DNA from: Limisphaerales bacterium
GTDB lineage: Bacteria > Verrucomicrobiota > Verrucomicrobiia > Limisphaerales > SIBE01
DNA: 64,000 bases
NCBI GenBank assembly: GCA_044225505.1
Contig: JBGAIN010000005.1
Span: 62,001 to 126,000, forward strand
Reading direction: 5' to 3'
Position 1 is the first letter of the stretch; every line of letters starts with the position of its first letter. A model generated the notes under the pieces. The model saw only the letters and a list, made by a program, of their open reading frames with translations, had not been told where the DNA came from and made no database searches. Shown piece by piece: positions 9,186 to 62,710 of the stretch. A program made the position numbers and the translations under genes.

Positions 9186-9494
9186 ATGGATTATCACTTC
9201 CAGTTTCGATTCAACTCGACGGCGCATTCCCTTCCCAATGTCGGCCAGCCTCGCCCAGCTCGATTCCCTGTTATTTCCGCGCCGCCTCGGCCGAAATGCA
9301 CCGGCGAGACGGTCGATGGCAACGGGCCGGCAGCGCGTGCCTCTGCGACTCCGCGACCGGAGGTCCGGCCGCAAACTAAGTGTGAGGAGAAGCTGACCAA
9401 AACGCCTACCCAGATTCAGGCTCAGGTCAAGCAACTGGAATTCTGGCTGAAGGTTTTTTCACGCTTTTGCCAGGAAGATAAAGGGCAAGAATAA
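9186..9494 (+). CDS. Hypothetical protein (102 aa)
   Basis: ATG-started ORF co-oriented with downstream genes; amphipathic C-terminal helix; no recognised family. Confidence 0.35.
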   Translation: MDYHFQFRFNSTAHSLPNVGQPRPARFPVISAPPRPKCTGETVDGNGPAARASATPRPEVRPQTKCEEKLTKTPTQIQAQVKQLEFWLKVFSRFCQEDKGQE

Positions 9495-9515
9495 CCTCGA
9501 ATCGCCGCGCCTAGG

Positions 9516-9662
9516 ATGAAAAAGTCGATTTGGATAGAGTGGGTCGAGTGGGGGGTCTTCGCTCTCATCGCGGTGTTTGTGGCTGGAGTGATTGCCATGC
9601 GCACCGAGATCACCTCCGCGGAGAATAATTCGACGGCGCCCGTGCAGAGCTTGGACGAATAG
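9516..9662 (+). CDS. Small single-pass membrane protein (48 aa), not in the ORF track
   Basis: MKKSIWIEWVEWGVFALIAVFVAGVIAMRTEITSAENNSTAPVQSLDE*: basic N-terminus plus a hydrophobic helix. Confidence 0.5.
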   Translation: MKKSIWIEWVEWGVFALIAVFVAGVIAMRTEITSAENNSTAPVQSLDE

Positions 9663-9734
9663 CGGCCGCGCGTTTGAACTTCCTTGGCCCGTTGCCAACC
9701 GGGCGCACGCCCATTAAGCTCTCGGCTACGAGCA

Positions 9735-11060
9735 ATGGACGAACACCGAGTTGATACGGAGAACAAGACGCGAGTTCGTGGATTTACCGCCTCTCAAGTC
9801 GTAATTGCCGTAACGGTCGTTGCTGCGCTTGGGCTCGTCGCACTGGTTCTTTTCCAGCTCGCGCATCGCGAGCCAACTTTTGAGTCCACGCAAACAGCCG
9901 GGTCTGATTCGAACTCTCTCCCGATACTGGAGGCAACTCCTGCGCCCAAGCCAAACCCTGGAGCAGAGAACGAGCCCAGCGCACCACCGAACCCAGCGTT
10001 TGTCCGAACGCCCCTCGTCCCGGTCCGGTCGGGCGGTTCAAAGGCTCCCTCGCCGCTCCCCGCAGCCTCCGCGCGTTCGCAACAGATCATCCACGATTTG
10101 ACCCAGCTTGAATCTGGAAAATTAACCCCGGAACGGATTGCGTTCATCAAGTCGCAACTCCAACAGCTAAGCAGCGAGGGCTTGGCGTCCATACCCGCGA
10201 TCCGTCAATTCCTGGAACGGAGTGAGGACCTGGCTTTCGACGATGGTGCGGGAGGGAGTGAGGTTGGTTTTCCATCCCTTCGAGCTGCGTTTGTTGATCT
10301 GTTGAAGCAAGTTCCGGGCAGCGAATCGAACGACGCGCTCCTCAGCGTGCTGCGGAGCACAGCGGATCCGGTCGAGCTTGCTTCGATCGCGCACTTCCTG
10401 GACGGACAAGCGCCTGGCCAGTATCAACAGGAGACCGTGAACGCCGCTCGTGAAACATTAAATCAGGCGTTGCGTGGGACTCTCCAGGTGAACGACGCGG
10501 GCCCCTTGTTCAAGCTTCTCCGGGAATATGGCGATTCCAATGTCGCAGCGGATTTGGCCCAAGCGATGCCGCAGTGGCATTATTACGCGATGATGGCGCT
10601 CGCGGGGCTTCCCGAAGGGCAGGGGGTTTCGACGTTGGTCCAACGCACGGTCGAAGCGTCGAAGGCGGGCCGCACAGACCAAGCATTTGCGCTGCAGATG
10701 CTCGCGCAGGTCTCCGCCCAAAATGCCGAAGCGGCGGCCGCGCTCGTTGAACAAGCGCGGGCCAACCAGATTCCCGATCGCGCCTGGACCAAGATTGCTG
10801 AAGGGTTGGCGGGGGATCAATATCGACTCGAAAAACCGGCCACGGACCCAGCCGGCGAAACCCCCTTGGCTGGTCTAAAAACCTATCATATTGAAAGCGG
10901 AAACCAGAACTTCTATAGCTTGCCTTTCCAGATTTACGGAACACCTGAGGAAGCGGCTCAACGACGGGCGGTGTTGGATCAGCTTCTCAGCTCCACGCAG
11001 AACCCGGCAGCTGTGCAGGCCTTGCAGCAAGCTCGCGCAAATCTATTAGCTAGCCCATAA
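9735..11060 (+). CDS. Membrane-anchored alpha-helical (HEAT-like) hypothetical protein
   Basis: TM helix VVIAVTVVAALGLVALVLF, Pro-rich linker, long Ala/Leu-rich helical domain. Confidence 0.75.
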   Translation: MDEHRVDTENKTRVRGFTASQVVIAVTVVAALGLVALVLFQLAHREPTFESTQTAGSDSNSLPILEATPAPKPNPGAENEPSAPPNPAFVRTPLVPVRSGGSKAPSPLPAASARSQQIIHDLTQLESGKLTPERIAFIKSQLQQLSSEGLASIPAIRQFLERSEDLAFDDGAGGSEVGFPSLRAAFVDLLKQVPGSESNDALLSVLRSTADPVELASIAHFLDGQAPGQYQQETVNAARETLNQALRGTLQVNDAGPLFKLLREYGDSNVAADLAQAMPQWHYYAMMALAGLPEGQGVSTLVQRTVEASKAGRTDQAFALQMLAQVSAQNAEAAAALVEQARANQIPDRAWTKIAEGLAGDQYRLEKPATDPAGETPLAGLKTYHIESGNQNFYSLPFQIYGTPEEAAQRRAVLDQLLSSTQNPAAVQALQQARANLLASP

Positions 11061-40844: not shown

Positions 40845-41366
40845 ATGAATTGGAGCCCAAATCTGCGGATGGGTGTCATCGCGCTGGTCGTCCTGGCGGC
40901 TGACCAGCTCTCTAAGTTCGTGGTCATGCAATACTTGGGTTTCCGCGAAGAAGTCGTGGTCATTGACGGCTTCTTCCGGCTGGTTCATTGGGGAAATACT
41001 GGGGCGGCTTGGAGCTTTTTCAAAGACCATAACGGCCTGCTCGCAGCCGTCTCGGGCATGGCCCTGATCGCTTTATTCCTGACCAGGAATCATTTCGGAG
41101 CCGGCACCGCCCTCGGACAAGTTGCCCTGGGGCTGCTTTTTGGTGGTATCTGCGGCAACCTGACTGATCGGCTCCTGGAAAGCCGTCGGCATGTGATCGA
41201 TTTCCTCTATTTCTACGTCAACCAGCGCGGCGGCGGCGAAATAGGATTTCCCGCGTTTAACATTGCGGACAGCGCTATTTGCATTGGCGTGGGGCTTCTC
41301 TTCCTGCTTTCCTGGCAAAAAGATCAAGCGAAGGGTTCGCTCGGCTCGGTGGGACAGCCGACCTAA
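40845..41366 (+). CDS. lspA: Lipoprotein signal peptidase II
   Basis: DQLSK, NTGAAWS, GNLTDR, VIDF, FNIADSAI. Confidence 0.96.
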   Translation: MNWSPNLRMGVIALVVLAADQLSKFVVMQYLGFREEVVVIDGFFRLVHWGNTGAAWSFFKDHNGLLAAVSGMALIALFLTRNHFGAGTALGQVALGLLFGGICGNLTDRLLESRRHVIDFLYFYVNQRGGGEIGFPAFNIADSAICIGVGLLFLLSWQKDQAKGSLGSVGQPT

Positions 41367-41437
41367 ACCTCGCCGTTTCGTAGCGTCATCCAGCTCAGAA
41401 CCAAACTGTCCCCAGGCCCTCCGGAGACTTTGCGCGC

Positions 41438-42394
41438 ATGCCCGCCAAGCCACCTATCGTTATTGCCGGACCGACCGCCGTTGGCAAATCCGCGGTCTGC
41501 ATGGTCTTGGCCGAGCGCCTGGGCGCGGAGATCCTGTCGGCGGATTCCATGCAAGTCTATCGGGGCATGGACATAGGGACGGGGAAACCAACACTCGCCG
41601 ACCGCAGACGGGTTCCTCATCACTTGCTCGACGTCATCGGGTTGGACGAATCCTTCGATGCCGCGCGCTATGTCCAGCTAGCTTCGATCGCGTTGGGAGA
41701 AATACAAAGGCGGCACAAATCCGTCATCCTGTGCGGGGGAACAGGGCTTTACCTCCAAGCCCTCTTTCTCGGACTCGGCGACGCGCCACCGTCTGATGCA
41801 GCGTTGCGTAGCGCCTTAGAATTGCTCCCGACGGAGACTCTGCTCGCCGAATTGCACCGAATGGACCCTGTTTGTTTCGCGAATATCGATGTTGCCAACC
41901 GGCGGCGGGTGGTTCGAGCGGTTGAGGTCATACGGCTCACCGGGAAACCTTTCTCGGCACAGCGAGCGGTCTGGTCTGAAGCCGGGCCGGGCTCCTATCG
42001 TTTGCCGGACGGACGCGTCGCCCGGCTGTTCGGGCTAGAACGGCCCGTGCCGGACCTCCAGCGGCTCATTAACGAACGCGTGCTACGCATGGTGCAAGAC
42101 GGGCTGGTCGACGAAGTCAAACGCCTGCAAGGGGCTGGTTTGTCGCAAAACCGCACCGCGTCACAAGCGCTCGGTTATAAACAGATCCTGGATCATCTCC
42201 AAGGCAACGTTACCCTCGACGCGGCGATCGAAGACATCCAACGCCGCACCCGCCAATACGCCAAACGCCAGTTGACCTGGTTCCGCCGTCAGGCCCCTTT
42301 GGAATGGATCCCCTGGACGAGCTCAGATTCTGCCGATTCGATCGCGGACGAGGTGCTTCGGCGTGCGGAGCACATCCCAGGGACACGCGGGTGA
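41438..42394 (+). CDS. miaA: tRNA (adenosine(37)-N6)-dimethylallyltransferase
   Basis: GPTAVGKS, SADSMQVYRGMDIGTGKP, GGTGLY, ALGYKQ, TRQYAKRQLTWFR. Confidence 0.97.
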   Translation: MPAKPPIVIAGPTAVGKSAVCMVLAERLGAEILSADSMQVYRGMDIGTGKPTLADRRRVPHHLLDVIGLDESFDAARYVQLASIALGEIQRRHKSVILCGGTGLYLQALFLGLGDAPPSDAALRSALELLPTETLLAELHRMDPVCFANIDVANRRRVVRAVEVIRLTGKPFSAQRAVWSEAGPGSYRLPDGRVARLFGLERPVPDLQRLINERVLRMVQDGLVDEVKRLQGAGLSQNRTASQALGYKQILDHLQGNVTLDAAIEDIQRRTRQYAKRQLTWFRRQAPLEWIPWTSSDSADSIADEVLRRAEHIPGTRG

Positions 42395-50283: not shown

Positions 50284-51240
50284 ATGGAAAATGTCGTGTC
50301 GCCAAACGGGCAGGGGGGAGACCCGAGCTCTGCCCCACTGGAACCTGGCAAGCCTGGGAAAGCGGCTCCCAAGGTCTGCGGGGGCGATCTGGGATCATCG
50401 CGGCGATTCTTTGATAATCGATTCGTTTACGCGGTCGTCTCGCAACGCGCGCGAGGCCTATCGATCGGCGTGAATCTGAGTGCGGACCAGTACTGCACCT
50501 TCGACTGCATCTACTGCGAGGTAGGGCGCAATGGCGGAACGCCCGATCGGGAGGTGGATCTCAAAGTCCTTTCCGGGGAATTGAGTGGGATGTTGTCCTT
50601 AGCCAAAGAAGGACGCGTGCATGAGCTGCCTGGATATCACAATGTGCCTCACGAATTGCTCGCACTGAAGTCGGTGGCGCTGAGCGGGGATGGTGAGCCG
50701 ACGCTTTGCCCGAACTTCCACGAAGTTGTCCAGGTCGTCGTGCATCTGCGCGCCCAGGGCGACTACCCATTCTTCAAGATCGTCCTCATCACAAACGCCA
50801 GCGGCCTGCATTTGCCTCAAGTCCAGCTCGGGATGCAGCTCTTTACTTTAAAGGATGAAGTCTGGGCGAAACTCGACGCGGGCACGCAGGGTTACATGGA
50901 AAAGATCAACCGGCCCAAGGTGTGTCCGGTGAATTGTCCGAACGTGTCGCTCCAACAGGTGCTCGAAAACATCCTTAAGCTTGGCCGGCAACGTCCGCTG
51001 GTCATTCAAAGTCTGTTCGCCTTGATCGATGGGGAAGAACCACCCGCGAGCGAAATCGAGGAATACGTTCAACGATTGAAAGAACTGACGGAAGCGGGCG
51101 CCAACATCTCCCTGGTCCAAATTTACTCGGCGCATCGCCCTGCAGTCCGGGCTATCTGCAGCCATCTACCGCTCCGAAGCCTCTCGCGCATTGCCCAGCG
51201 GGTAAGAGAAGTCACCGGCTTGAAAGCCGAAGTGTTCTAG
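50284..51240 (+). CDS. Radical SAM protein (Fe-S oxidoreductase)
   Basis: SQRARGLSIGVNL, CTFDCIYC (CxxxCxxC), SGDGEPT, LITNAS, WAKLDAG. Confidence 0.93.
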   Translation: MENVVSPNGQGGDPSSAPLEPGKPGKAAPKVCGGDLGSSRRFFDNRFVYAVVSQRARGLSIGVNLSADQYCTFDCIYCEVGRNGGTPDREVDLKVLSGELSGMLSLAKEGRVHELPGYHNVPHELLALKSVALSGDGEPTLCPNFHEVVQVVVHLRAQGDYPFFKIVLITNASGLHLPQVQLGMQLFTLKDEVWAKLDAGTQGYMEKINRPKVCPVNCPNVSLQQVLENILKLGRQRPLVIQSLFALIDGEEPPASEIEEYVQRLKELTEAGANISLVQIYSAHRPAVRAICSHLPLRSLSRIAQRVREVTGLKAEVF

Positions 51241-51267
51241 CTCGAGGCACGGTCGGAACGGTGGAAC

Positions 51268-52164
51268 CTACGCCTTCAGCTGGCGTCGAATCTGATCGAG
51301 TTGTCCTCGCTGGGATTTCGTCATGGAAGGATACTCCATGGGCAGGCCCTCCAGCGTTTCGACAAGCACACGCGAAACGATGAGGCGCGCGTTCTCCTTG
51401 TCGTCTGCTGGGACGATGAACCACGGCGCCTCGTCCGTGCTGGTGGCATTCACGCAATCCTCATATGCCCCCATGTAGTCTTTCCAGCGTTTGCGCTCTT
51501 CCAGATCTCCTAGATTCAGTTTCCAGTTCTTCTCCCGATCCTCCACACGGCTGAGAAAACGTTTGCGCTGTTCGTCCTTCGAGAGATGAAGGTAAAACTT
51601 CAAGATCCGCGTGCCATTGCCAACCAGGTGCTTCTCAAAATCCACAATCGAACGGTAACGTCCTTTCCACAGCCCGTCCCCTTTGGGGAGCTCCTCAGGT
51701 AAGTTCTGGTTGCCCAGGAACTCCGGATGCACGCGCACAACGAGGACTTCTTCGTAGTAAGATCGATTAAAGACGCCAATCCTTCCGCGTTCCGGCAAGC
51801 GGAGCGTCGTGCGCCAGAGAAAATCGTGATCGAGCTCCTCCGCGCTCGGCTGTTTGAAACTGTAAACCTGACAACCTTGCGGATTCACGCCGGAGAAGAC
51901 GTGCTTGATCACCCCGTCCTTGCCCGCAGCGTCCATGGCTTGGAAGATCACCAGCAACGCGTAGCGGTTATGCGCGTAGAGCAGACTCTGGAGACGGGAC
52001 AACCGTTCGGTCTCGTCGTGCAGAAGCTCTTGGTAATGCTCTTTGGAGCTGTAAAACGGGCGGACCACCGTCGGCCAGTGTTTCAGCTTGATCTTCTTGC
52101 CTTCGGTCGCACGGAAACCGCGAGTTTGAATTTTCGATTTCATACCATCCGCCTCATGAACCAT
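51268..52164 (-). CDS. ppk2: Polyphosphate kinase 2 family protein (class III-like)
   Basis: QAMDAAGKDG, GVNPQG, FKQPS.EEL.HDFLWR, FNRSYYEEVL, APWFIVPADDK. Confidence 0.94.
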   Translation of the reverse strand: MVHEADGMKSKIQTRGFRATEGKKIKLKHWPTVVRPFYSSKEHYQELLHDETERLSRLQSLLYAHNRYALLVIFQAMDAAGKDGVIKHVFSGVNPQGCQVYSFKQPSAEELDHDFLWRTTLRLPERGRIGVFNRSYYEEVLVVRVHPEFLGNQNLPEELPKGDGLWKGRYRSIVDFEKHLVGNGTRILKFYLHLSKDEQRKRFLSRVEDREKNWKLNLGDLEERKRWKDYMGAYEDCVNATSTDEAPWFIVPADDKENARLIVSRVLVETLEGLPMEYPSMTKSQRGQLDQIRRQLKA

Positions 52165-52362
52165 ATCAAGGATGCGCTAAAAGGACTAGCAAAGGCGAAT
52201 CTTTTGCAGGGTGGCAGAATGTCCGAAGTTCCCAACGCGGGGCGACGCGGAATACCGATCTCCATCGGTCTCACAGCCCGGGTGGGACGACCTGGCTGCC
52301 CGGTCGCTTCGGGAGCCCTGGCGCTAACCATTTTGACCTGACGGACGTGAAATGCCAAAATC

Positions 52363-53625
52363 GTGCGGTTGAATATCGAGATTATTAATACCGGGTCCGA
52401 GTTGTTGCTAGGGTATGTCACCAACACGAACCAACGGTGGCTTTGTCGCGAACTAAGTCGGCGCGGGTTCGTAGTCACCAGGCAGGTCGCCGTGCCAGAC
52501 GACGCGCGAAGTATCCAGACTGCCATCGTGGAGTCGTTGCAGCGCGTCGACATTGTGATCACCACGGGCGGCTTGGGGCCAACCTCGGATGATCTTACCC
52601 GACAATGCATCGCGGAACACTTTGGCCGCAAGCTCCGCGAAGACCCGGGCGTCGTTCAGCGTATCGAAACCTTCTTCCGCTCGCGCGGCCGTCCTATGCC
52701 TGTGCAAACGCGTGTCCAGGCCTTGGTCCCCGAAGGCGCTCTCGTCCTCGACAACAACAATGGGACGGCACCGGGGCTGGCAATTGACGTGGCCAGCGGA
52801 AAGATCGGCTCGGCCAAACTCCTAATCATGCTGCCCGGCCCACCGCGCGAGCTCGAACCGATGTTCTTGAGCGAAGTGATTCCCTTGCTGCAGAAGCGCT
52901 TTCCAGCTCCGAGCCCGTTCGCGTGCTGCGTCCTGAAATCGACGGGCGTTGGTGAATCGGTCGTTGAAGCCCGAATAGCCGGTCCGCTTCAGCCGATGGT
53001 TGCGGCCGGATTGGAAATTGGTTACTGCGCCCGGTTTGGCGAAGTCGACGTTCGACTGATCGCGCGCGGCGATAGAGCCGCGGAGGTCGTCGGTGAAGCC
53101 GAACGAATCGTGCGGTCGATCCTCGGCAAGCATGTCTTTGGCACAGAGTCGGAAGACCTGGCCGCCGTCGTCTTGCAGCAATTGACCGCTCGTAAGGAAA
53201 CCCTCGCGCTCGCGGAATCATGCAGCGGCGGTTTTGTGGCGCATCGATTAACAAATGTTCCCGGGGCGTCGGCCGCTTTTCTGGGAGGATTCGTCACCTA
53301 TAGCAATGAAGCCAAGGTATCGTGTCTGGGTGTGAGTCAGGAAACCCTCAGCCACTTTGGCGCCGTCAGCGAACAAGTCGCTCGCGAAATGGCGGAAGGC
53401 ACGCGAGCCAAGCTGAATTCGAACTACGCGCTCGCCATTACAGGTATTGCCGGCCCAACCGGCGGCACACCGGAAAAACCGGTCGGAACAGTTTATCTCG
53501 CGCTCGCGGGAGGAGGGCCCACCGTCGTGCTGTCGCAAATGAATCGATACGACCGAGAGAGCTTTAAGTTCGTGACCTCGCAGCAAGTGTTGGAAATGCT
53601 GCGAAGGCGATTGCAGGACCTGTAA
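52363..53625 (+). CDS. cinA: CinA (MoCF-like domain + NMN deamidase PncC domain)
   Basis: GSELLLG, TGGLGPTSDDLT, NGTAPG, LPGPPRE, AESCSGG, GAVSE, ITGIAGP.GGT.EKPVG. Confidence 0.95.
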   Translation: MRLNIEIINTGSELLLGYVTNTNQRWLCRELSRRGFVVTRQVAVPDDARSIQTAIVESLQRVDIVITTGGLGPTSDDLTRQCIAEHFGRKLREDPGVVQRIETFFRSRGRPMPVQTRVQALVPEGALVLDNNNGTAPGLAIDVASGKIGSAKLLIMLPGPPRELEPMFLSEVIPLLQKRFPAPSPFACCVLKSTGVGESVVEARIAGPLQPMVAAGLEIGYCARFGEVDVRLIARGDRAAEVVGEAERIVRSILGKHVFGTESEDLAAVVLQQLTARKETLALAESCSGGFVAHRLTNVPGASAAFLGGFVTYSNEAKVSCLGVSQETLSHFGAVSEQVAREMAEGTRAKLNSNYALAITGIAGPTGGTPEKPVGTVYLALAGGGPTVVLSQMNRYDRESFKFVTSQQVLEMLRRRLQDL

Positions 53626-54113: not shown

Positions 54114-55145
54114 TTAAGGGGACGCAGTAACCCGTTCGGTCGATTCCACGAGCTGCAAGGCGTGCCCGTCCGGATCGCGAAGAAACACGCGTCGTGGCAA
54201 TTTCGTATCGCGGACGGTGTTCATCTTGTGGGAAACGAACGTCAATCCGGCATGGCGGCACGCCTCGATAAGAGTGTCATAACTTTCAACCAAAACTGGG
54301 ATGGACCAGAAAGTGAGATCCCGGGCATTCGCTTCGGCCGAAAGCGCCCGCCCTCCGGGTGGAGCGATGTACTCGAGGAACTCAACGCCTGGGCCGCGGG
54401 GCGCGCGGAGAGCGGTAATATGTAGCCGCGCCCCAAACACGAGGTTCAAATGCTCCTGCTCTGGCCCAAAGTTCTCGCTTGTTCCGACGACTCTGAAACC
54501 GAGCTTGTCTCGGTAAAACGCGAGGCTCTTGGCGGTATCTGAAACTACGATCGCGGAATGGTCGATGCCGAGAAACAAAGGTCCGCTCTCCGTCTGCCAT
54601 TTGGGATCTCCTTTACCTGGTGGGAATGAGATGATCTCAAGCACGTGGGCTTCCGAGTCTTGGAAGTAAAAGGCCTTGATTCCAGCCGCGTTCGTGTTCC
54701 ATTCCGGGAGTGTTTGCGGTGCCGTCGAGACGTGCTGGACTCGATGACGGAGCAAGTGTTGATAAGCTTCGTCCATATCGCGCACGACAATTGCTAGGTG
54801 CTGAAACCAAAGATCGAAACTCCGGGAATCCTGCGGGACGGGCCGGCCCTTTTGATTGAGGTGCTCGGTGAGCGTAATGCGCTCCTTTCCCAGAGCGAGC
54901 TCGACAGTTCTCGATTCGGTGTTCGCCAATCCGAGAAGCGCATCTGCTTCGCCCAGCGAAGATCGGCTTTCGGAGACGACCACGAAAGGGAGCACGTTCG
55001 TGTAGAAGTTTAGTGCGCGATCGAGTTGCCCGACCGTCAATCCAATCGCGCCGACCTCGAGCGCCGCCGCGCTGCTTGAAGGCGGCGCCGAGAGTGCCAA
55101 CGTCGATAGCACCAAGGCAAATCTCAGGAGTCGAAAGAGCGTCAT
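54114..55145 (-). CDS. Exported two-domain VOC/glyoxalase-family protein
   Basis: Signal peptide, WFQHLAIVV.DMD, AFYFQD.E.HVLE, GIDHSAIVVSD, RDPDGHAL. Confidence 0.9.
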   Translation of the reverse strand: MTLFRLLRFALVLSTLALSAPPSSSAAALEVGAIGLTVGQLDRALNFYTNVLPFVVVSESRSSLGEADALLGLANTESRTVELALGKERITLTEHLNQKGRPVPQDSRSFDLWFQHLAIVVRDMDEAYQHLLRHRVQHVSTAPQTLPEWNTNAAGIKAFYFQDSEAHVLEIISFPPGKGDPKWQTESGPLFLGIDHSAIVVSDTAKSLAFYRDKLGFRVVGTSENFGPEQEHLNLVFGARLHITALRAPRGPGVEFLEYIAPPGGRALSAEANARDLTFWSIPVLVESYDTLIEACRHAGLTFVSHKMNTVRDTKLPRRVFLRDPDGHALQLVESTERVTASP

Positions 55146-55210
55146 AGGAGAGAATCCGGGTAGATTGGGAACTATAGCCGCTCGCGAGCCGCCATGCGAG
55201 CGCCGATGGG

Positions 55211-56857
55211 TTAGACCGTTATGAGCGGCTCCGCAACTGGGTGGGGTCTCGTTCTCGCGTCAAGAGCAGGTAAGGCGTGGGACATTATATTCGCACCGAG
55301 CCGCGCGAGAATGTGATCCCCGACGCGAAGGGCGTTCGCCATGATTGTCAAGGCCGGGTTCACTGCCGCGCTCGACGCAAAGAAACTGGCATCCACGACG
55401 TAGAGATTGTCTAATTCGTGCTCGCGGCATTGGGAGTTCAAGGCAGACGTGCGGGGATCGTTTCCAAAGCGAATCGTTCCATTCTGATGGGCTACACCCG
55501 CCAGCGGAATGCGCTGGCCTGCATACAGACTGCGTGCGAACAACCCTTCGTGACATTCGTGTCCGTGGACTCCGCACTTCGTTTGTTGTTTTAGGAGTTC
55601 CTTAAGCTTTTCCATCAGGCGGCGGTGTCCCTCCTCGTTATTGGGACGGTAAGAGAGCACGATCCTGCCGTCGCGATCCAGCGTAACGCGGTTATTCGGA
55701 TCGGGGAGATCTTCGGAGGTAAGCCAAAAGTCGAGAGAATGCTTGCCCATCAGATCGAGCGTCCAGCGTGGTGCGATCGCTGGGGCTCCAGCGCGGAGGG
55801 TGTCTGCGTCGAGCTTGCCAACGAACGAGATGTGCCCCATCGGGAATGCCCAGTCGGGAGCTTCCAGATAAAAGTCATTTATCGACAGTGTCTTTTGGAA
55901 CACCGTGGGATTCGGACATTTCGAGATCGCCATCAAGACGGAATTCACGTGGCCCATATAATGCCGCCCGACGACGTCTGAACCATTGGCCAGACCCCGC
56001 GGGTGTTTCTCATTGGCGGAACGCAGCAGCAACGCTGCAGAGTTGATGGCCCCGCACGCCACAACCACGATATCCGCGCTCAACGCCAGGGTTTCTTCGC
56101 GTCGTTTTACATGTACTTTGGTGACGGTGGTCCCTGCCGCGTTCGTCTCCAGCCGGGTCACCTGAGCTTCGGTCATGAGAGCGACGTTGGGAAATTCAAG
56201 CGCAGGATCGACGCAGCAAACTTGCGCATCGGCTTTGGCGTTGATCAGGCAGGGGTGTCCGTCGCACGTGCTACAGCGGATGCAGGCGCTTTTGTGCGGA
56301 TTGTTCTCGTCCAACATCACGCCCAATGGCGTGTGGAACGGTCGGAGACCTGCGGCGGTCAAATCGTCACTGAGCTGTTGAATTCGCGGCTCGTGGCTGA
56401 TGGAGGGATAGGGATAGGGGGTGCTCCGCCAAGGTTCGACCGGATCCTCACCTTTCTGCCCATGAACGTGATAGAGCCGTTCTGCTTCCGCATAGTAAGG
56501 CTCAAATTCATCGTAACCGACGGGCCAAGCGGGAGAGATGCCGCCATGATGACGAATTTCGCCGAAATCCTCTTTGCGCAAGCGAAATAGAGCAGAACCG
56601 TAAAACTTCGTGTTCCCGCCGACAAAATAGTTTGTGTGCGGATGAAGATCGCGACCGTCCCGGTCTTGCCAGACTTCTTTCGTGTTGTAGCGGCCTTCGG
56701 CGTTAACCGCTTTTGTGCTCCAATTCTCGCGCTCGCGCGGAACATACGAGCCGCGCTCAATGAGGAGGATCTTCTTGCCGCTCGACGCTAAGCGATAGGT
56801 CAGTGTGCCACCGCCTGCACCTGACCCGATGATGATCACGTCGTAATGATTATTCAT
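55211..56857 (-). CDS. GMC-family FAD oxidoreductase with Fe-S-type Cys cluster
   Basis: DVIIIGSGAGGG, VGGNTKFYG, CIRCSTCDGHPC, HQNGT.RFG, NLYVVDASFF, VNPALTIMANALR. Confidence 0.94.
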   Translation of the reverse strand: MNNHYDVIIIGSGAGGGTLTYRLASSGKKILLIERGSYVPRERENWSTKAVNAEGRYNTKEVWQDRDGRDLHPHTNYFVGGNTKFYGSALFRLRKEDFGEIRHHGGISPAWPVGYDEFEPYYAEAERLYHVHGQKGEDPVEPWRSTPYPYPSISHEPRIQQLSDDLTAAGLRPFHTPLGVMLDENNPHKSACIRCSTCDGHPCLINAKADAQVCCVDPALEFPNVALMTEAQVTRLETNAAGTTVTKVHVKRREETLALSADIVVVACGAINSAALLLRSANEKHPRGLANGSDVVGRHYMGHVNSVLMAISKCPNPTVFQKTLSINDFYLEAPDWAFPMGHISFVGKLDADTLRAGAPAIAPRWTLDLMGKHSLDFWLTSEDLPDPNNRVTLDRDGRIVLSYRPNNEEGHRRLMEKLKELLKQQTKCGVHGHECHEGLFARSLYAGQRIPLAGVAHQNGTIRFGNDPRTSALNSQCREHELDNLYVVDASFFASSAAVNPALTIMANALRVGDHILARLGANIMSHALPALDARTRPHPVAEPLITV

Positions 56858-57028
56858 GCGCAGATGGGTCGCCTCGCGACACAGCTCCTTACAGAGAATC
56901 GCAGAGGCAAGTGGCCGTGCCCAAAGGCAAGAGAATTCAGCCGATAGCGTCACCGCTGCTTCGATCGCCTCGTGTCAGGAATGTCCGCTGCGCACGACAC
57001 ACTGGCACGTGCATACGCCTGCGTTGCT

Positions 57029-57796
57029 ATGAAAATGCTCCTTCAACCGAATCGACTACTGACTCATCCGTCGGACACTTATCAAATCCGGCTCGCGAAA
57101 AACCTTGATGATATCCAGGCAGCGCAGCGTTTGCGCTTCATGGTCTTCAACCTCGAACTCGGTGAGGGCTTGCAGGAATCTCTACAGACTGGACTCGACG
57201 CAGATCCTTATGACGCTGTCTGTGATCATTTGCTGGTGGAGCATGTGCCTTCCGGGGATATCGTAGGAACGTATCGCCTGCAAACTGGGACAGTGGCCGG
57301 TTCGCGACTGGGGTATTACAGCGCGGAGGAGTTTGACTTTCGACCTTATGAACCACTGCGTTCCGAGTTAATCGAGCTGGGCAGAGCCTGCGTGCACCGC
57401 GAGCATCGCAATCTCCTGGTGCTCGGGCTGCTTTGGAAGGGCATCGCCCAATACGCTGCTCGACGCGGGGCGCGGTATTTGTGCGGCTGCAGTTCGTTGA
57501 CCTCTCAAGACCCGGCCGAAGGTGCATCCATTTACGCGGAGCTCTGTCGGCGACACCAGGCACCACCGCCGTTGCGAACTCAACCTTTGCCACGCTATGC
57601 GTGCCCACTCGATCGACTCGCTAGTGAGAACGCAAAGGTTCCAAAGCTCCTAAAAGCCTATCTGACAATCGGTGCCAAAATATGCGGTCCTCCCGCTATC
57701 GATCGTCGTTTTCGAACCATCGACTTCTTAACACTGCTTGATTTGGAATCGCTGCCAGCGATCGTCCGCGAGCGCTTTACCAGCACGGACCTCTGA
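57029..57796 (+). CDS. GNAT N-acyltransferase, OlsB-like (Acetyltransf_5)
   Basis: AQRLRF.VF, D.YD.VCDHLLV, VGTYRL, YSAEEFD, ELGRACV, GCSSL, P.LLKAYL..GAKICGPPA.D..F...DF. Confidence 0.9.
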   Translation: MKMLLQPNRLLTHPSDTYQIRLAKNLDDIQAAQRLRFMVFNLELGEGLQESLQTGLDADPYDAVCDHLLVEHVPSGDIVGTYRLQTGTVAGSRLGYYSAEEFDFRPYEPLRSELIELGRACVHREHRNLLVLGLLWKGIAQYAARRGARYLCGCSSLTSQDPAEGASIYAELCRRHQAPPPLRTQPLPRYACPLDRLASENAKVPKLLKAYLTIGAKICGPPAIDRRFRTIDFLTLLDLESLPAIVRERFTSTDL

Positions 57797-57802
57797 TTGA
57801 CG

Positions 57803-58624
57803 ATGCTTCGATCGATGGCCCAGCTCTTTCGCATTACCGCACGCGGTGCGGCATTGCTAGTCACGTTGGGATGGGCTGCGTTCCTCCATGGTTATCAGGT
57901 TTGCCGTCAACCGAGCTTAGGATCGGTCTCAACACGGTCGGAATGGCTGCACAAAATCTGCCAGAGGCTTATCAAAGTCTTAGGGGTTCAACTGCATGTC
58001 CGCGGCCCGGTGCCTCGCCAGGGGCTCCTCGTGAGCAATCATCTGGGGTATCTGGACATATTGGTGCTTGCGGCGACAACGCCGTGCCTCTTTGTGTCCA
58101 AAAGCGAGGTTGAGACCTGGCCTCTGTTTGGATGGTTCGCCCGGCGTGCCGGCACGCTCTTCGTGCAGCGGGGAAAGCGCTCGGATACTGCCCGGGCCTC
58201 GTCCTTGATGACAGCGGCCCTGCATCAAGGAGCCCTCGTGGTTTTGTTTCCGGAGGGCACAAGCACGAATGGCTTCTCGGTCCTGCCGTTTAAGTCGGCG
58301 CTGCTCCAACCGGCGATCGAGCCGGGTCGAATGTTAACGGTCTGCAGCCTGGAATATCATGTGTCCGGGGGGAATGCCGCGACCGATGTTTGTTACTGGG
58401 GTGAAATGACGTTGGTACCGCACCTCCTGCGGTTGCTGGGGCTACGGGAGATCCGTGCCAGGATCACTTACGCGCCCTGGGAACCGGAGTTATCCCAAAA
58501 GAGTCTCCATCGAAAAGATCTGGCACGCACGCTGCATTCGGAGGTCGTCCGGCTGCACGCCATGGGACAACGACAAGCCGCAGAACTGCCGAGCCATTCT
58601 CTCGCCTGCCACGCCGTGTCTTAG
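57803..58624 (+). CDS. Lysophospholipid acyltransferase, PlsC/OlsA-like
   Basis: NHLGYLD (HX4D), FVSKSEV, GTLFVQR, FPEGT. Confidence 0.93.
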   Translation: MLRSMAQLFRITARGAALLVTLGWAAFLHGYQVCRQPSLGSVSTRSEWLHKICQRLIKVLGVQLHVRGPVPRQGLLVSNHLGYLDILVLAATTPCLFVSKSEVETWPLFGWFARRAGTLFVQRGKRSDTARASSLMTAALHQGALVVLFPEGTSTNGFSVLPFKSALLQPAIEPGRMLTVCSLEYHVSGGNAATDVCYWGEMTLVPHLLRLLGLREIRARITYAPWEPELSQKSLHRKDLARTLHSEVVRLHAMGQRQAAELPSHSLACHAVS

Positions 58625-58722
58625 GGCTCTTTTCGTCGCTCAGCTCTTCCGCGGATCCTTTGGGGGCCGTGTAAGGATCTGTCCAAAGGCACGACATAAC
58701 TGGAAAGATCATCCACTTGCTT

Positions 58723-59157
58723 ATGTCATCCTGCAAAACCAAACGCATCACCAGCTGGACGTTACAGATCATAACGGCGGCCATCTTGTTCCAGACGCTC
58801 TTCTTTAAGTTCACGGCCGCGGAGGAATCTGTCTATATCTTCACCACGCTCGGAATTGAGCCCTGGGGACGGATTGTTTCCGGGGTGGTGGAGTTAGTCG
58901 CCGTTGTGCTCCTGCTCGTGCCGCGGACCGTCGTGATGGGAGCGTTCCTCTCGCTCGGCGTGATTTCAGGCGCTCTTTTCAGCCATTTGACCAAGCTCGG
59001 CGTCAGCGTTCAGAACGACGGTGGTCTCTTGTTCGGGCTGGCCCTCGTTGTATTTGTAGCGAGCGTGGCCATCTTGTTTCTGCGACGGGAACAGATCCCA
59101 GTTCTGCGGGCGTTGCTACCCGCGTCCGCAGAGCACCACTGCGCGATCCATGATTGA
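58723..59157 (+). CDS. DoxX-family membrane protein
   Basis: ILFQTLFFKFT...ES.YIF..LGIEPWGRI..G..E, GALFSHL, DGGLLF; four TM helices. Confidence 0.88.
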   Translation: MSSCKTKRITSWTLQIITAAILFQTLFFKFTAAEESVYIFTTLGIEPWGRIVSGVVELVAVVLLLVPRTVVMGAFLSLGVISGALFSHLTKLGVSVQNDGGLLFGLALVVFVASVAILFLRREQIPVLRALLPASAEHHCAIHD

Positions 59158-59204
59158 ATCCACCACGTGCCCGATCTAGTCCCCATCCCCGCTCAACAGG
59201 ATTT

Positions 59205-59876
59205 ATGACCCCTTCTCTCGAATCTCCCGCCGGTGCAATTTCCGCGGGAGACCCTTTGGCGAATCGTGGGAACGCCTCGGCGCGCTGGATCGAGATCGCG
59301 TTCCCTAAAACACTGCCAACTCCGTCTGAACCGACGTTGGCGGACGGTGCGCGGATCGTGCAAGCCGCGATCTCGATACTGGAACAAGGCGAATTGCTCC
59401 TCAGTGCGGTTTCCCCGCAATCCTACACCGAACGGCTGCCGATCGCTTTCAACGCCTCGATCGGTGGCCATTACCGCCACTGCCTTGACCATTTCACCAG
59501 CCTCTTCCGCGGCGACGACCAACCGGAGATTGATTATGACCGGCGCGACCGGGACCGCCGCGTCGAAACCGAGCCTGACTTTGCCCTGCATCTCACCCGA
59601 TCGATGCGGAAAGAGTTGCAGGATTTGACATCGGAAGATCTTCGCCTGCCCGTTCGCGTCCGCTGCGCCGTGAGCTATGAGAAAGGACCGTCACCTGTGA
59701 CGAGTTCCACTCGCGGGCGGGAACTGTCGTATGCCATTGCCCATGCGATTCACCACTATGCGCTCATTTCGATCATAGCGCGCCTGCTCGAAGTGGCGCT
59801 TCCCATCACGTTCGGCGTGGCTCCGTCCACCTTGGCTCATCAAGCAAAGATTGGATCCAGCTCCACCTCCCGATGA
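59205..59876 (+). CDS. DinB/YfiT-family protein
   Basis: ASIGGHYRHCLDHF, IDYD.R.R, REL.Y...HAIHH, FGVAPST. Confidence 0.88.
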   Translation: MTPSLESPAGAISAGDPLANRGNASARWIEIAFPKTLPTPSEPTLADGARIVQAAISILEQGELLLSAVSPQSYTERLPIAFNASIGGHYRHCLDHFTSLFRGDDQPEIDYDRRDRDRRVETEPDFALHLTRSMRKELQDLTSEDLRLPVRVRCAVSYEKGPSPVTSSTRGRELSYAIAHAIHHYALISIIARLLEVALPITFGVAPSTLAHQAKIGSSSTSR

Positions 59877-61534
59877 GTTCCGCGGCGTTCCCACTCTGGC
59901 CGGTCGAATTCCTTCAATGGAGCTTCTTTGCCCAAGCGGTCACCCTTGCGCTTTCGACGTTCGTGCAAGAGGATGCGCCCACGTTGGCGGCAGCCCTGTT
60001 ATGGAGCAGTGGCAATCTCCCGATCTCGACCGGATTCATCGGCTGTTCCGTGGGTATCTGGGCGGGCGACGCCATCCTTTACCTCCTCGCGCGAGCCTTT
60101 GGACGTCCGCTGATCGATTGGCGCTGGACACGGCATTGGCTGCGCGGAGATGCGATCGCTCGAAGCGAGCGGTGGTTCGCTCAACGCGGGGCGTGGCTGC
60201 TGTTGACGAGCCGTTTTGTTCCGGGAACTCGATTGCCGACCTACCTGGCGGCAGGCTTTCTGCGACTTTCCTTTCCGCGATTCCTCGCGCTGACTGGCAT
60301 CGCGGTGACCCTTTGGACCAGCCTCCTCTTTCTGCTCGTCGGTTGGTTTGGGAAATCAGTTTTCCAGTGGGCGGGTGAATCACTCAACCAAGGCTGGACT
60401 TGGTTGCTCCTCGTCTTGCTCGCGGCCCTGTTCTGGAAAACGTTGACCCGGTTCATGAACCCAACCTGGCGCCGCCGCGCCAGTGCGATGTGCGGCCGGC
60501 TCCGCCACTGGGAATTTTGGCCGGCCTGGCTATTTTATTTTCCTGTCGCCCTCCAGTACCTTCGTCTCGTTGTGAAATATCGCGGACTTACCGTGCCCAC
60601 GGCCGCCAACCCAGGCATCTTCTCCGGCGGTCTCGTTGGCGAATCGAAAGTCACGACGCTTCTGGATTTGAATGCCTCCAGCCCGGAGTTTACAGCGCAA
60701 GCCTGTCTGATCCCGGTTAGTTCCTGCGTCGGCAGACTGGCCTTGCTGGACGCATTTTGTGCACGGCTCCCGGTAGCCTACCCTCTCATCCTCAAACCCG
60801 ACGTCGGGCAACGGGGCGTTGGGGTCAAGTTGATCCAAACGCGTGCGCAAGCGGTCGATTATTTGAACGCCGTTCAGGCTCCGATCGTGGCGCAGGAATA
60901 CATTCCCGGTCCGTGCGAAGTTGGGATCTTCTATTATCGGTTGCCAGAAGAAGCCACAGGGCGGATCTTTGCGATTACCGAAAAAGTCTTTCCGATGTTG
61001 GTGGGCGATGGGCGCCAGACGGTCGAGGAACTCATCTGGCAACATCCACGCTGCCGATTCATGGCCGACACCTACCTTCGTCGTCTCGCTCCGCGCCGCT
61101 TCGAAATTCTGGCGACAAATGAAACCTTGCGCCTTGTCGAGGCTGGCAATCATGCCCAAGGATGCATCTTTCAGGACGGCCATCACCTCTGGTCGCAACC
61201 TCTGCAAGATCGCATCGACTCCATCTCGCAACGGCTGCCCGGCTTTTTCATCGGTCGCTACGATATCCGATATCGCGATGCCGCCGATCTCCAAGCCGGG
61301 CAAAACTTCAAAATTTTGGAGCTGAATGGGGCGGCCGCCGAAGCGACCAGTATTTACGACGCCCGCAACTCGCTTGGCACTGCTTACCGAACCCTCTTCC
61401 AGCAATGGGAACTCGTCTTCCGAATTGGTGCGGCCAATCGGCAACGAGGCGCCCAACCGACTTCCCCTCCGTTGCTTTGGCACAAATGGCGCGAGACTTC
61501 TCGTCTTGTTCGCACTTATCCCGTGGCCGACTAA
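59873..61534 (+). CDS. DedA (VTT/SNARE-associated) membrane domain fused to an ATP-grasp ligase-like domain
   Basis: N-half: STFVQED, GIWAGDAILY, SRFVPGTR. C-half: ANPGI..GG..GESK, YPLILKPDVGQRG.GV, QEYI, GRYDIRY, ILELNG. Confidence 0.9.
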   Translation: MSSAAFPLWPVEFLQWSFFAQAVTLALSTFVQEDAPTLAAALLWSSGNLPISTGFIGCSVGIWAGDAILYLLARAFGRPLIDWRWTRHWLRGDAIARSERWFAQRGAWLLLTSRFVPGTRLPTYLAAGFLRLSFPRFLALTGIAVTLWTSLLFLLVGWFGKSVFQWAGESLNQGWTWLLLVLLAALFWKTLTRFMNPTWRRRASAMCGRLRHWEFWPAWLFYFPVALQYLRLVVKYRGLTVPTAANPGIFSGGLVGESKVTTLLDLNASSPEFTAQACLIPVSSCVGRLALLDAFCARLPVAYPLILKPDVGQRGVGVKLIQTRAQAVDYLNAVQAPIVAQEYIPGPCEVGIFYYRLPEEATGRIFAITEKVFPMLVGDGRQTVEELIWQHPRCRFMADTYLRRLAPRRFEILATNETLRLVEAGNHAQGCIFQDGHHLWSQPLQDRIDSISQRLPGFFIGRYDIRYRDAADLQAGQNFKILELNGAAAEATSIYDARNSLGTAYRTLFQQWELVFRIGAANRQRGAQPTSPPLLWHKWRETSRLVRTYPVAD

Positions 61535-61539
61535 CTCCT

Positions 61540-61875
61540 ATGTGCACCGTCACCTTCGTTGCGCTCGCTCGAGGATATATCGTCGGCATGAACCGCGACG
61601 AAAAGCTGGCGCGCGCGCGCGCGTTGCCGCCAGCCGTCGCTACTCTTGGCCGCGACCTCGCCGTGTTTCCCAAGGAGTCCAGCGGCGGCACTTGGATTGG
61701 CGTCAACAGTTGGGGAACAACGGTGGCCTTGATCAACTGGTATGCCGTTCCTTGTCGCGTCGAACAGGGCGCGATCAGCCGGGGTGAAGTAGTCAAGAGT
61801 GCGCTCGCCCATTGTGGCGCGGCCGCGAGCGAGTCATTTCCGCCCGGCTTGCCCTTGGAAAGCATCAAATTCTAG
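61540..61875 (+). CDS. NRDE/TANGO2-family (Ntn-hydrolase fold) protein, N-terminal part
   Basis: MCTVTF (Cys2 nucleophile position), NRDE, GGTWIGVN, SRG; premature TAG at 61873-61875. Confidence 0.88.
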   Translation: MCTVTFVALARGYIVGMNRDEKLARARALPPAVATLGRDLAVFPKESSGGTWIGVNSWGTTVALINWYAVPCRVEQGAISRGEVVKSALAHCGAAASESFPPGLPLESIKF

Positions 61876-61938
61876 CCCCATGCAACCCCTCTCCGCTGGA
61901 CAATCTTTGTCCATCGCCCCGGTTGCCGGGCTCCCTTC

Positions 61939-62511
61939 TTGACCGCCGTTCCCGCCGTCGTCATTGATCCAGATTCTCGCGTGAACCCGTTTCGTCTGCT
62001 CGTTTTTGCTTGCCTCGTTTTTGCACAGGCGCAAGCCCAGGTCGTCGAATGGCAATGGGACCTTCACCGGTTGCATCGAGTCGATCATCCGTGGCTTACG
62101 AACACCTGGATTTCTTCTGGATTCGACGAGCCCGGCGCCCAGATCAGCCGTGGACACACCTTTGCCACGGCTCGTCCGCGCTTTGGATCACAACCTCGTG
62201 TTGCGCTCCGTCGACTGCATCGGTCGCACGTGCCCGAGCCTGGCCCTTACTCTACTTGCATGCACCGAAACGACGCCGCCACCGTGAGCTACACTGAAAT
62301 CTCGGTCTCCAAACGCCTGGCAAAAGTCTATTATGCTCCCGGCCCGCCCTGTTCGACGGAAGCACTTCCGGTGACACAACTGAGATTGTGCCCGATGATT
62401 CGAGCGAATGTGGCGTCCGTTGCGGAAGCACCGCTCGTCAGAAACCGAGGTGAGAGATCTCTCCAGGATCGCCTTAAAGGACTATGTAACACCTTTGTAG
62501 ATAAGCACTAA
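61939..62511 (+). CDS. NRDE/TANGO2-family protein, C-terminal part (same frame as the N-terminal part)
   Basis: NPFRLL, WISSG, LHRSH, CMHR.DAATVSYTEI; family-like sequence resumes at about 61975. Confidence 0.8.
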   Translation: MTAVPAVVIDPDSRVNPFRLLVFACLVFAQAQAQVVEWQWDLHRLHRVDHPWLTNTWISSGFDEPGAQISRGHTFATARPRFGSQPRVALRRLHRSHVPEPGPYSTCMHRNDAATVSYTEISVSKRLAKVYYAPGPPCSTEALPVTQLRLCPMIRANVASVAEAPLVRNRGERSLQDRLKGLCNTFVDKH

Positions 62512-62616
62512 CGCTGAGCTAGGGCGTGCCTCAGCCTTTTGGGCAACCGCCTTTTCTCGTGCAACTGCCACATGGTTAGAGGGTTATGCCTCAGGATACG
62601 GCGCCGTTCAGCCCTT

Positions 62617-62710
62617 CTACCCGCACGCTAAACGCACGCTAAACGCACGCTGACCCCACGTGCACGTGGGGTTCGCTTGAGCTTGGGGTGTGCGTATCGT
62701 GTGGAGCCTG
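62617..62710. repeat. Four 11-bp direct units, a 20-bp perfect palindrome and a degenerate inverted arm
   Basis: ctacccgcacg ctaaacgcacg ctaaacgcacg ctgaccccacg; ACCCCACGTGCACGTGGGGT at 62653-62672. Confidence 0.8.

Follow-up and report, generated by a model that had tools for sequence, protein, structure and literature searches.

We find that a locus at positions 54114-62511 of a 64,000-nucleotide stretch of Limisphaerales bacterium DNA (phylum Verrucomicrobiota, contig JBGAIN010000005.1; hereafter the window, to which coordinates refer unless another contig or locus is named) carries a real, widely conserved and uncharacterised gene set. The conserved core of this cassette consists of a DinB-fold protein, a DedA::ATP-grasp fusion protein, with or without an additional hydrolase domain, and an NRDE/TANGO2-family protein. 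In the window, the cassette is next to genes for an OlsB-type and an OlsA-type acyltransferase, and it probably modifies amino-acid membrane lipids. The original prediction for this locus proposed that the OlsB/OlsA pair makes an acyloxyacyl amino acid, that the ATP-grasp domain extends its free carboxylate with another amine, that DedA flips the product and that the NRDE protein edits or recycles it; this pathway is plausible, although unproven. A literature search returned only reviews or unrelated papers, and we found no description of the cassette in it. For the window, our analysis adds the juxtaposition of olsBA with the cassette and a shared motif before three transcription units, the resolution of a break in the NRDE gene, a four-domain fusion, and co-occurrence with aminolipid synthesis genes, including GH3, in two phyla.

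Gene content and conserved core of the locus

The eight open reading frames (ORFs) of the locus lie at the positions, and belong to the families, given in the original prediction, based on the ORF list, Pfam and NCBIfam. These genes and the sequence features associated with them are as follows.

54114-55145, minus strand: VOC/glyoxalase-fold protein with two modules (PF00903, 5.9e-21, two stretches)
55211-56857 (longest ORF to 56953), minus strand: GMC-family FAD oxidoreductase (PF05199, 1.6e-17; PF00732, 2.3e-11)
56868-56893, minus strand: promoter-like motif TGTAAGG-N15-CGAC before gmc, perfect match
56973-56998, plus strand: promoter-like motif before olsB, one-mismatch form TGTCAGG-N15-CGAC
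57029-57796, plus strand: OlsB-family N-acyltransferase, a lyso-aminolipid synthase (PF13444, 4.7e-28)
57803-58624, plus strand: OlsA/PlsC-family O-acyltransferase (PF01553, 1.4e-22)
58670-58695, plus strand: promoter-like motif TGTAAGG-N15-CGAC before doxX, perfect match
58723-59157, plus strand: DoxX_2 small membrane protein (PF13564, 2.9e-06)
59154-59876, plus strand: DinB/YfiT-fold putative metalloprotein (AlphaFold2 model, Foldseek, invariant His)
59873-61534, plus strand: DedA/VTT::ATP-grasp fusion, 553 residues (Pfam, PDB profile search, AlphaFold2 and Foldseek)
61540-62511, plus strand: NRDE/TANGO2-family protein, interrupted in this assembly (PF05742)
61860-61976, plus strand: 117-nucleotide insert in the NRDE gene that carries an in-frame TAG (contigs of other runs)

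The core is apparent in two sets of loci that we annotated with purpose-built hidden Markov models (HMMs). Set A comprises 63 related loci that hold the ATP-grasp gene and is biased towards relatives of the window, while set B comprises 38 loci drawn from 301 Verrucomicrobiota genomes that sample the phylum evenly. DedA, fused to the ATP-grasp ligase, is found in 57/63 loci of set A and 34/38 loci of set B; the corresponding counts are 50/63 and 20/38 for DinB, 46/63 and 21/38 for NRDE, 6/63 and 24/38 for an alpha/beta hydrolase, and 17/63 and 5/38 for OlsB and/or OlsA. Joint conservation elsewhere was the test proposed with the original prediction, and it bears out both the core and a recurrent link to OlsB and OlsA, but not the remaining genes. 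DoxX, present in 18/63 and 4/38 loci, is not a conserved part of the cassette, nor are GMC (7/63) and VOC (8/63), neither of which occurs in any of the 38 loci of set B; GMC and VOC are instead partners in a regulon defined by the shared motif. The tight coupling of NRDE to the ligase, by contrast, holds up in these neighbourhood counts, in the occasional fusion of the two, and across the 301 Verrucomicrobiota genomes, in which PF05742 is present in 24 of the 39 with the ligase but in only 2 of the 262 others. Gene order varies by lineage, being DinB-fusion-NRDE in loci of the window type and DinB-NRDE-fusion in many others.

The family to which the fusion belongs is large and diverse in architecture. 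Among 8000 candidates scored, 2783 are homologues of the fusion; the best 120 are mostly ~553 residues long and mostly 57-62% identical to it, are called VTT-domain or DedA proteins where they are named, and come from Verrucomicrobia where the organism is given. When the ATP-grasp domain by itself served as the query, an exhaustive profile search retrieved 4439 representatives at E ≤ 1e-3, of which 1680 reached E ≤ 1e-30. The architectures fall into lengths of ~350-390, 520-600, 800-900 and >1000 residues. Based on Pfam, the class of 800-900 residues has the order alpha/beta hydrolase-VTT-ATP-grasp, and two proteins of 1121-1130 residues (P0213 and P0218) are four-domain fusions of TANGO2, alpha/beta hydrolase, VTT and ATP-grasp domains. 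In two further proteins (P0173 and P0174, ~711-715 residues), an alpha/beta hydrolase is joined to the ATP-grasp domain and no VTT domain was detected. The cluster-member annotation of 10 stand-alone or long-form proteins gave 'hypothetical protein' or nothing. As a lead only, the ESM Atlas holds stand-alone ATP-grasp clusters of 320-373 residues, which are commonest in Bacteroidota and Pseudomonadota.

The fusion, DinB and NRDE proteins

The fusion is composed of a DedA/VTT domain (~59909-60457) and an ATP-grasp domain (60485-61531), joined by a helical linker that is aromatic and conserved. Residues 50-155 match the VTT domain (PF09335, 1.3e-15, 58.4 bits versus a cut-off of 33.9), and the best NCBIfam match of this domain is the undecaprenyl-phosphate transporter UptA, at 47.7 bits versus a cut-off of 250. 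The ATP-grasp domain gives a weak RimK match in Pfam (1.4e-3), and its best match in a profile search of the PDB is cyanophycin synthase (1.9e-7), followed by GshAB and Ddl. Similar results are obtained from structure. The AlphaFold2 model of the fusion (predicted local distance difference test score, pLDDT, 87.2) has 235 PDB matches in Foldseek at E ≤ 0.001, and the top matches are GshF (3ln7/3ln6), CphA (7wae/7ta5) and Ddl, with E values from 2e-8 to 1e-5. The identity of the ATP-grasp domain to its relatives GshF, the G-domain of cyanophycin synthetase and Ddl is 12-19%. These nearest solved relatives join a carboxylate to an amine, and the original prediction was right to consider the domain a genuine ATP-grasp of the amide-ligase type. 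No tRNA-dependent aminoacyl-transferase domain was found in the fusion by Pfam. In an alignment of the fusion with 28 homologues (29 sequences), K308, E349, R462, D464, E483 and N485 are invariant; by analogy with Ddl, we assign the invariant Lys and the R-x-D / E-x-N pattern to binding of ATP and Mg.

The region between the two domains sets the fusion apart from soluble ATP-grasp enzymes. Residues 197-269 are all helical in the model, the region up to residue 276 consists of helices only with no strand before E277, and the N-terminal alpha/beta pre-ATP-grasp substrate domain is absent from the model. In the place where the soluble relatives have this domain, the fusion has an invariant aromatic segment (W213/W216/Y222/P224), which, to judge from the model, may be an interfacial element.

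The DinB protein has a DinB_2 match in Pfam that falls below the cut-off (6.3e-4, 20.6 bits versus 24.8), and its fold was examined with an AlphaFold2 model (pLDDT 92.4). The model is an all-helical bundle, ~175-200 aligned residues long and without a sulfoxide-synthase domain, that matches YjoA, YfiT, mycothiol S-transferase, BstA and ClbS in Foldseek (3dka, 1rxq, 3gor, 8f5v and 5wk0; TM-score 0.5-0.75, E ≥ 1.2e-3). H40, H43, H131, H134 and H135 are invariant across 18 DinB sequences.

The NRDE protein matches PF05742 at 32.5 bits (cut-off 22.6), and both its N-terminal MCT, which includes Cys2, and its NRDE motif are found in 7/7 aligned sequences (the window and six homologues). In the window, the gene is broken by a single in-frame TAG (61873-61875), and its two halves share one frame. 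The TAG sits in an insert of 39 codons that is absent from 6/6 aligned homologues, and a 5-residue duplication is also extra in the window. We compared the locus with contigs of four public runs (X1, X2, X4 and X13), of which X2, X4 and X13 represent three other studies; the runs in which the stretch is found carry the labels of metagenomes from activated sludge, bioreactors or wastewater. Contigs from X2, X4 and X13, with ≥99% similarity to the window in nearly all cases, join 61859 to 61977 and skip exactly 117 nucleotides. In X1, 116 nucleotides of the insert are on a separate contig (depth 109, unlike flanks), while neighbouring contigs (depth ~7) end on both sides of it. A 15-nucleotide imperfect tandem duplication near 61999 is absent from all four runs. 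Because the contigs of three other runs skip the 117 nucleotides, we consider the break to be specific to this assembly, most simply a chimeric join, with the gene intact elsewhere. We also considered that the insert might be a repeated mobile element, but a BLAST search of the genome gave only the self hit, with other matches of ≤21 nucleotides, and we rejected this explanation. The original prediction foresaw expression with the NRDE gene repaired, but the alleles in the contigs of the three other runs appear intact and would need no repair, and the apparent pseudogene should not be taken as gene loss. Just downstream of the gene, at 62611-62661, many contigs from all three DNA runs, some of them far deeper, begin or end and have unlike flanks, which suggests a short repeat or a sequence common to other organisms.

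Aminolipid synthesis genes and the shared promoter-like motif

The OlsB match to PF13444 is full-length, covering profile positions 1-102 of 102. With respect to the NCBIfam equivalog models, the OlsB match is likewise full-length but scores below the cut-offs (145.7 bits versus 350 and 135.6 bits versus 320), and the full-length match of OlsA to the OlsA model, at 146 bits, does not reach its cut-off of 300. The OlsA sequence holds NHLGYLD (HX4D) and FPEGT, motifs that we take to be defining marks of the OlsA/PlsC acyltransferase family. Because the scores are ~146 bits compared to cut-offs of 300-350, we consider OlsB and OlsA, as judged from their sequences, to be members of these families without an assigned head group; the family scores do not specify the amino acid. 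OlsB homologues are known that use glutamine, glycine or lysine (PMC11631085; PMC12971839).

The ligase co-occurs with, and often adjoins, OlsB/OlsA-type genes in at least four phyla, and it does so in several arrangements. The olsB/olsA genes precede the ligase on its own strand in the window, in L006, L017, L018, L027, L034 and L070, and in loci of Planctomycetota, Balneolota and Acidobacteriota. They lie downstream of the ligase in L075, L080, L083 and L087, and on the strand opposite to the cassette in L042 (downstream) and L062 (upstream), the latter a locus labelled Chthoniobacter flavus. In L075 (genome G213) and L083 (genome G180), DinB-NRDE-DoxX-YHS and a stand-alone ATP-grasp gene without DedA are directly followed by olsB-olsB-olsA. 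The ATP-grasp match of these two loci holds one TGA in both genomes.

The same synteny and co-occurrence would support a reversed order of reactions, in which the ATP-grasp enzyme first makes a dipeptide or amino-acid conjugate and OlsB then N-acylates it, with an end product identical to that of the original prediction. The two tandem OlsB paralogues after the ligase in L075 and L083 are consistent with this order, as are two PF13444 genes just upstream of the ligase in genome G442 and the use of free amino acids or peptides by the relatives Ddl and GshF. However, the fusion to a membrane domain and the lack of a soluble N-domain speak for a lipid substrate, and acylation comes first in the one known case, since glycine lipid is reported as the intermediate of serine-glycine lipid (PMC12971839). 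We regard the reversed order as very unlikely.

The link to aminolipid synthesis is also seen in the gene content of whole genomes. Among the 301 Verrucomicrobiota genomes, PF13444 is present in 36/39 with the ligase compared to 147/262 without it, while among 151 Planctomycetota genomes, the counts are 12/16 with the ligase and 16/135 without it. In 7 of these 16 Planctomycetota ligase genomes, the PF13444 gene is on the strand of the ligase and at most 5 kb upstream of it. The 4/16 that lack PF13444 all carry a gene of the GH3 family, to which OlsH belongs; when PF13444 or GH3 is counted, the difference is 16/16 versus 62/135. Fisher tests on these co-occurrence tables give P values from 1.5e-5 to 4e-23, which are overstated, as related genomes are not independent. 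In a Saprospiraceae locus (L064), where a stand-alone homologue of 29% identity is surrounded by genes for a methyltransferase, an FKBP, a K+ channel and a photolyase, no aminolipid gene was found. One Planctomycetota locus (L109, genome G373) has a VCA0040-like gene of the 'undecaprenyl phosphate translocase-like' type at its positions 9453-10811 (PF04018, 1.4e-68), ~6.5 kb from the ligase.

The genome of the window has a second OlsB/OlsA pair (contig C222, locus L068, 8190-9771), 61% and 49% identical to the window pair. This second pair adjoins a type I phosphodiesterase, a calcineurin-like phosphoesterase and two GT4 glycosyltransferases, surroundings that presumably resemble a phosphate-starvation lipid-remodelling cluster. 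Given that setting, the window pair may be a stress-regulated copy. The NCBIfam scores of the two pairs are about equal (149.9 for the second OlsB) and do not discriminate between them.

Regulation of the locus is suggested by a promoter-like motif, TGTAAGG-N15-CGAC, which we derived by enumerating two-box motifs upstream of doxX, YHS and DUF1223 genes. The same motif precedes doxX, YHS, DUF1223 and dinB in related loci. Five matches with at most one mismatch are found in the window, compared to 0.68 expected, and a count of five was reached in 0/100 shuffles. The gmc motif ends 10 nucleotides before ATG 56857, and because it falls inside the longer GMC ORF, this ATG is most likely the start, resulting in a protein of 548 residues. 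The variant before olsB ends 30 nucleotides before ATG 57029, which, as in the original prediction, is the most likely olsB start, and the doxX motif is 27 nucleotides before ATG 58723.

The original prediction treated the six plus-strand genes as one tightly spaced series, which is true of every junction except that between olsA and doxX. The olsB-olsA junction measures 0-6 nucleotides; doxX and dinB overlap by 4 nucleotides if dinB starts at TTG 59154 (its start is uncertain, either TTG 59154 or ATG 59205); dinB and the fusion overlap by 4 nucleotides (ATGA); and 5 nucleotides separate the fusion from NRDE. The gap between olsA and doxX is 98 nucleotides, and because the promoter-like motif at 58670-58695 lies within it, the plus-strand genes are split into two units and do not form a single operon. 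The locus is made up of three units, gmc-voc, olsB-olsA and doxX-dinB-dedA::ATP-grasp-NRDE, with the same motif before each. The voc gene is probably downstream of gmc in one transcription unit; its product has an N-terminus that, judged by eye, appears hydrophobic and signal-peptide-like. GMC homologues with 74-77% identity are found in six loci.

We scored a relaxed form of the motif within 400 nucleotides upstream of genes in set A, considering scorable loci only, with a background of 0.036 per 400 nucleotides. The relaxed motif is present upstream of GMC in 6/7 loci, SDR in 8/12, DinB in 23/45, OlsB in 6/13, YHS in 12/30, DoxX in 6/15 and VOC in 2/6, but upstream of ATP-grasp in 1/63, DedA in 0/57, NRDE in 0/46 and OlsA in 0/12. 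In the genome of the window, the other genes seen with a perfect motif in front of them are two YHS genes, an SDR gene, msrA, a gene for a small HxxxCxxC protein (contig C123) and an SMP30-like gene. The genome-wide count of perfect motifs is 16, compared to ~13 expected from base composition, and is not significant by itself; the case for the motif therefore rests on its position before genes, its clustering in the window and its enrichment upstream of particular families. The best match to the HMM of the locus-associated extracytoplasmic function (ECF) sigma factor (contig C126, ~41000-41844) is divergent from the motif-bearing msrA. Taken together, the sequences point to a putative ECF-type oxidative-stress regulon.

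The presence of msrA and the HxxxCxxC protein in this regulon bears on the idea that the ATP-grasp enzyme makes a small peptide or thiol compound, either soluble or exported, that is similar to glutathione or to a thiohistidine dipeptide, with DinB as a thiol-dependent enzyme, NRDE as an amidohydrolase and DedA as an exporter. The top fold match of the ligase is the glutathione-synthetase domain of GshF, and the DinB-fold relatives include mycothiol and bacillithiol S-transferases. Moreover, ATP-grasp enzymes beside DinB-domain sulfoxide synthases make thiohistidine dipeptides (PMC13674229). However, the window DinB protein is a helical bundle that lacks a sulfoxide-synthase domain, and the ligase is fused to membrane domains, with the interfacial helix replacing the soluble N-domain. 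A soluble product would also leave the genome-wide link with aminolipid synthases unexplained, and we consider it decidedly unlikely.

Upstream of the locus, the stretch 50284-53625 encodes a PPK2 polyphosphate kinase (1e-67), a CinA protein and an ORF with a weak likeness to radical-SAM proteins, none of which has an evident link to the locus.

Proposed function and related systems

We favour a model in which a ligase at the membrane face alters the head group of an aminolipid made by OlsBA, OlsF or OlsH, with DedA, NRDE and DinB acting alongside, and we give this model an even chance of being correct. OlsB and OlsA would make an acyloxyacyl amino-acid lipid, a role that would fall to OlsF or OlsH elsewhere. 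The DedA domain and the aromatic interfacial helix would hold the ATP-grasp domain at the cytoplasmic membrane face, where it would activate a carboxylate as an acyl phosphate and join it to an amine, resulting in a changed lipid head group. The carboxylate would most simply be the free alpha-carboxylate of the lipid head group. The DedA domain would carry the substrate or product over the membrane, while NRDE, as a hydrolase of the Cys N-terminal-nucleophile type, might trim or reverse the modification and DinB could serve as a metal-dependent accessory enzyme. The model draws on the gene content, folds, catalytic-motif conservation, fusions, co-occurrence, synteny and shared motif that we observe; from these, we infer that the substrate is a lipid, which way the ligation runs, that DedA flips lipid, that NRDE acts as an amidase and that oxidative stress induces the genes.

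Several observations weigh against the model. The close structural relatives of the ATP-grasp domain all act on soluble substrates. OlsB/OlsA genes are not adjacent in 46/63 loci of set A and 33/38 of set B, and the genome counts are not phylogenetically independent. Three of the 39 Verrucomicrobiota ligase genomes (G195, G276 and G185) have neither PF13444 nor GH3, and two loci from PF13444-lacking Planctomycetota (L107 and L108) have no aminolipid gene, including GH3, within ~9 kb of the ligase. In an OlsB tree of 24 rows, the Verrucomicrobial part is a polytomy, in which the cassette-linked OlsB is not separated from the C222 paralogue. The regulon also holds msrA, YHS, SDR and SMP30-like genes, and co-regulation is therefore no proof of a shared pathway. 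Finally, the RNA library X13 has contigs that match portions of olsB, doxX-dinB and NRDE, which is no proof of transcription.

Some of these observations would fit a cassette that modifies or repairs another membrane molecule, for example the head group of a phospholipid, a lyso-lipid or an intermediate linked to polyprenyl phosphate, and is only co-regulated with aminolipid synthesis under oxidative stress. The absence of olsBA from most loci, the three ligase genomes without PF13444 and GH3, and the breadth of the regulon are all in line with such an activity, and UptA is the best named relative of the DedA domain, although the match is at 47.7 bits versus 250. However, OlsB/OlsA genes adjoin the ligase repeatedly, in several different arrangements and across at least four phyla, and PF13444 is rare in Planctomycetota (28/151), yet is found in 12/16 of their ligase genomes. 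We think that another membrane substrate is unlikely. With respect to the favoured model, a broader version is rather doubtful: the ATP-grasp family may represent the missing enzymes that extend aminolipid head groups (of cerilipin-type and peptide-headed lipids), with the fusion as a synthase-translocase that oxidative stress would induce for the synthesis of a protective lipid, and NRDE as the matching lipid amidase or acyl-editing enzyme.

MprF, an aminoacyl-phosphatidylglycerol synthase fused to a flippase and accompanied by partner hydrolases, is similar to the window fusion in that a lipid-translocating membrane domain and a cytoplasmic head-group enzyme are in one polypeptide, with a hydrolase alongside and a link to envelope stress. 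The two differ in three key aspects. First, the window fusion uses an ATP-grasp domain (acyl phosphate), but MprF uses aminoacyl-tRNA transfer. Second, the membrane domain of the fusion is DedA/VTT rather than the MprF flippase fold. Third, the presumed substrate of the fusion is an acyloxyacyl amino-acid lipid, while that of MprF is phosphatidylglycerol. The similarity is one of architecture only, and a comparison of Pfam content revealed no relationship in sequence.

The likeness to the other ATP-grasp enzymes, the G-domain of cyanophycin synthetase, GshF and Ddl, lies in the fold, the R-x-D / E-x-N metal-site pattern and the extension of a carboxylate by an amine. In the window protein, however, helices that include an aromatic interfacial segment take the place of the N-terminal alpha/beta substrate domain, and the ligase is fused to DedA and, in some relatives, to an alpha/beta hydrolase and NRDE. 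The tandem PF13444 and PF01553 genes, with full-length matches to equivalog models, resemble the OlsB/OlsA ornithine-lipid pathway, although the window proteins score far below the cut-offs and a second pair with equal scores is elsewhere in the genome. The bacterial NRDE protein shares with human TANGO2 the family PF05742, the N-terminal Cys and the NRDE motif, but differs in that it belongs to a membrane ligase cassette or forms one polypeptide with it. TANGO2 has been reported to bind acyl-CoA and to be a putative Cys N-terminal-nucleophile hydrolase (PMC11867700; PMC13044924).

Extension of the head group at the carboxylate of an aminolipid, as in the favoured model, has counterparts in cerilipin (Gluconobacter cerinus, taurine) and flavolipin (serine on glycine lipid); in those cases the lipids are known, while the window system is known from genes alone. 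The transfer of taurine to the carboxyl of ornithine lipid is reported to be ATP-dependent, with no gene assigned to it, and section 10 of the same review gives no enzyme for the serine step on glycine lipid (PMC12971839). A widespread membrane ATP-grasp protein that accompanies aminolipid synthases in several phyla is a candidate for enzymes of this kind. Should the broader version of the model be correct, a membrane lipid would for the first time have been shown to be the substrate of an ATP-grasp ligase. The cassette also gives a bacterial homologue of TANGO2, the activity of which is disputed, a defined genetic context, and a confirmed role in lipid modification would provide a direct biochemical clue to the function of the human protein. 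In Verrucomicrobiota, the shared motif points to oxidative-stress signalling that is linked with the remodelling of aminolipids.

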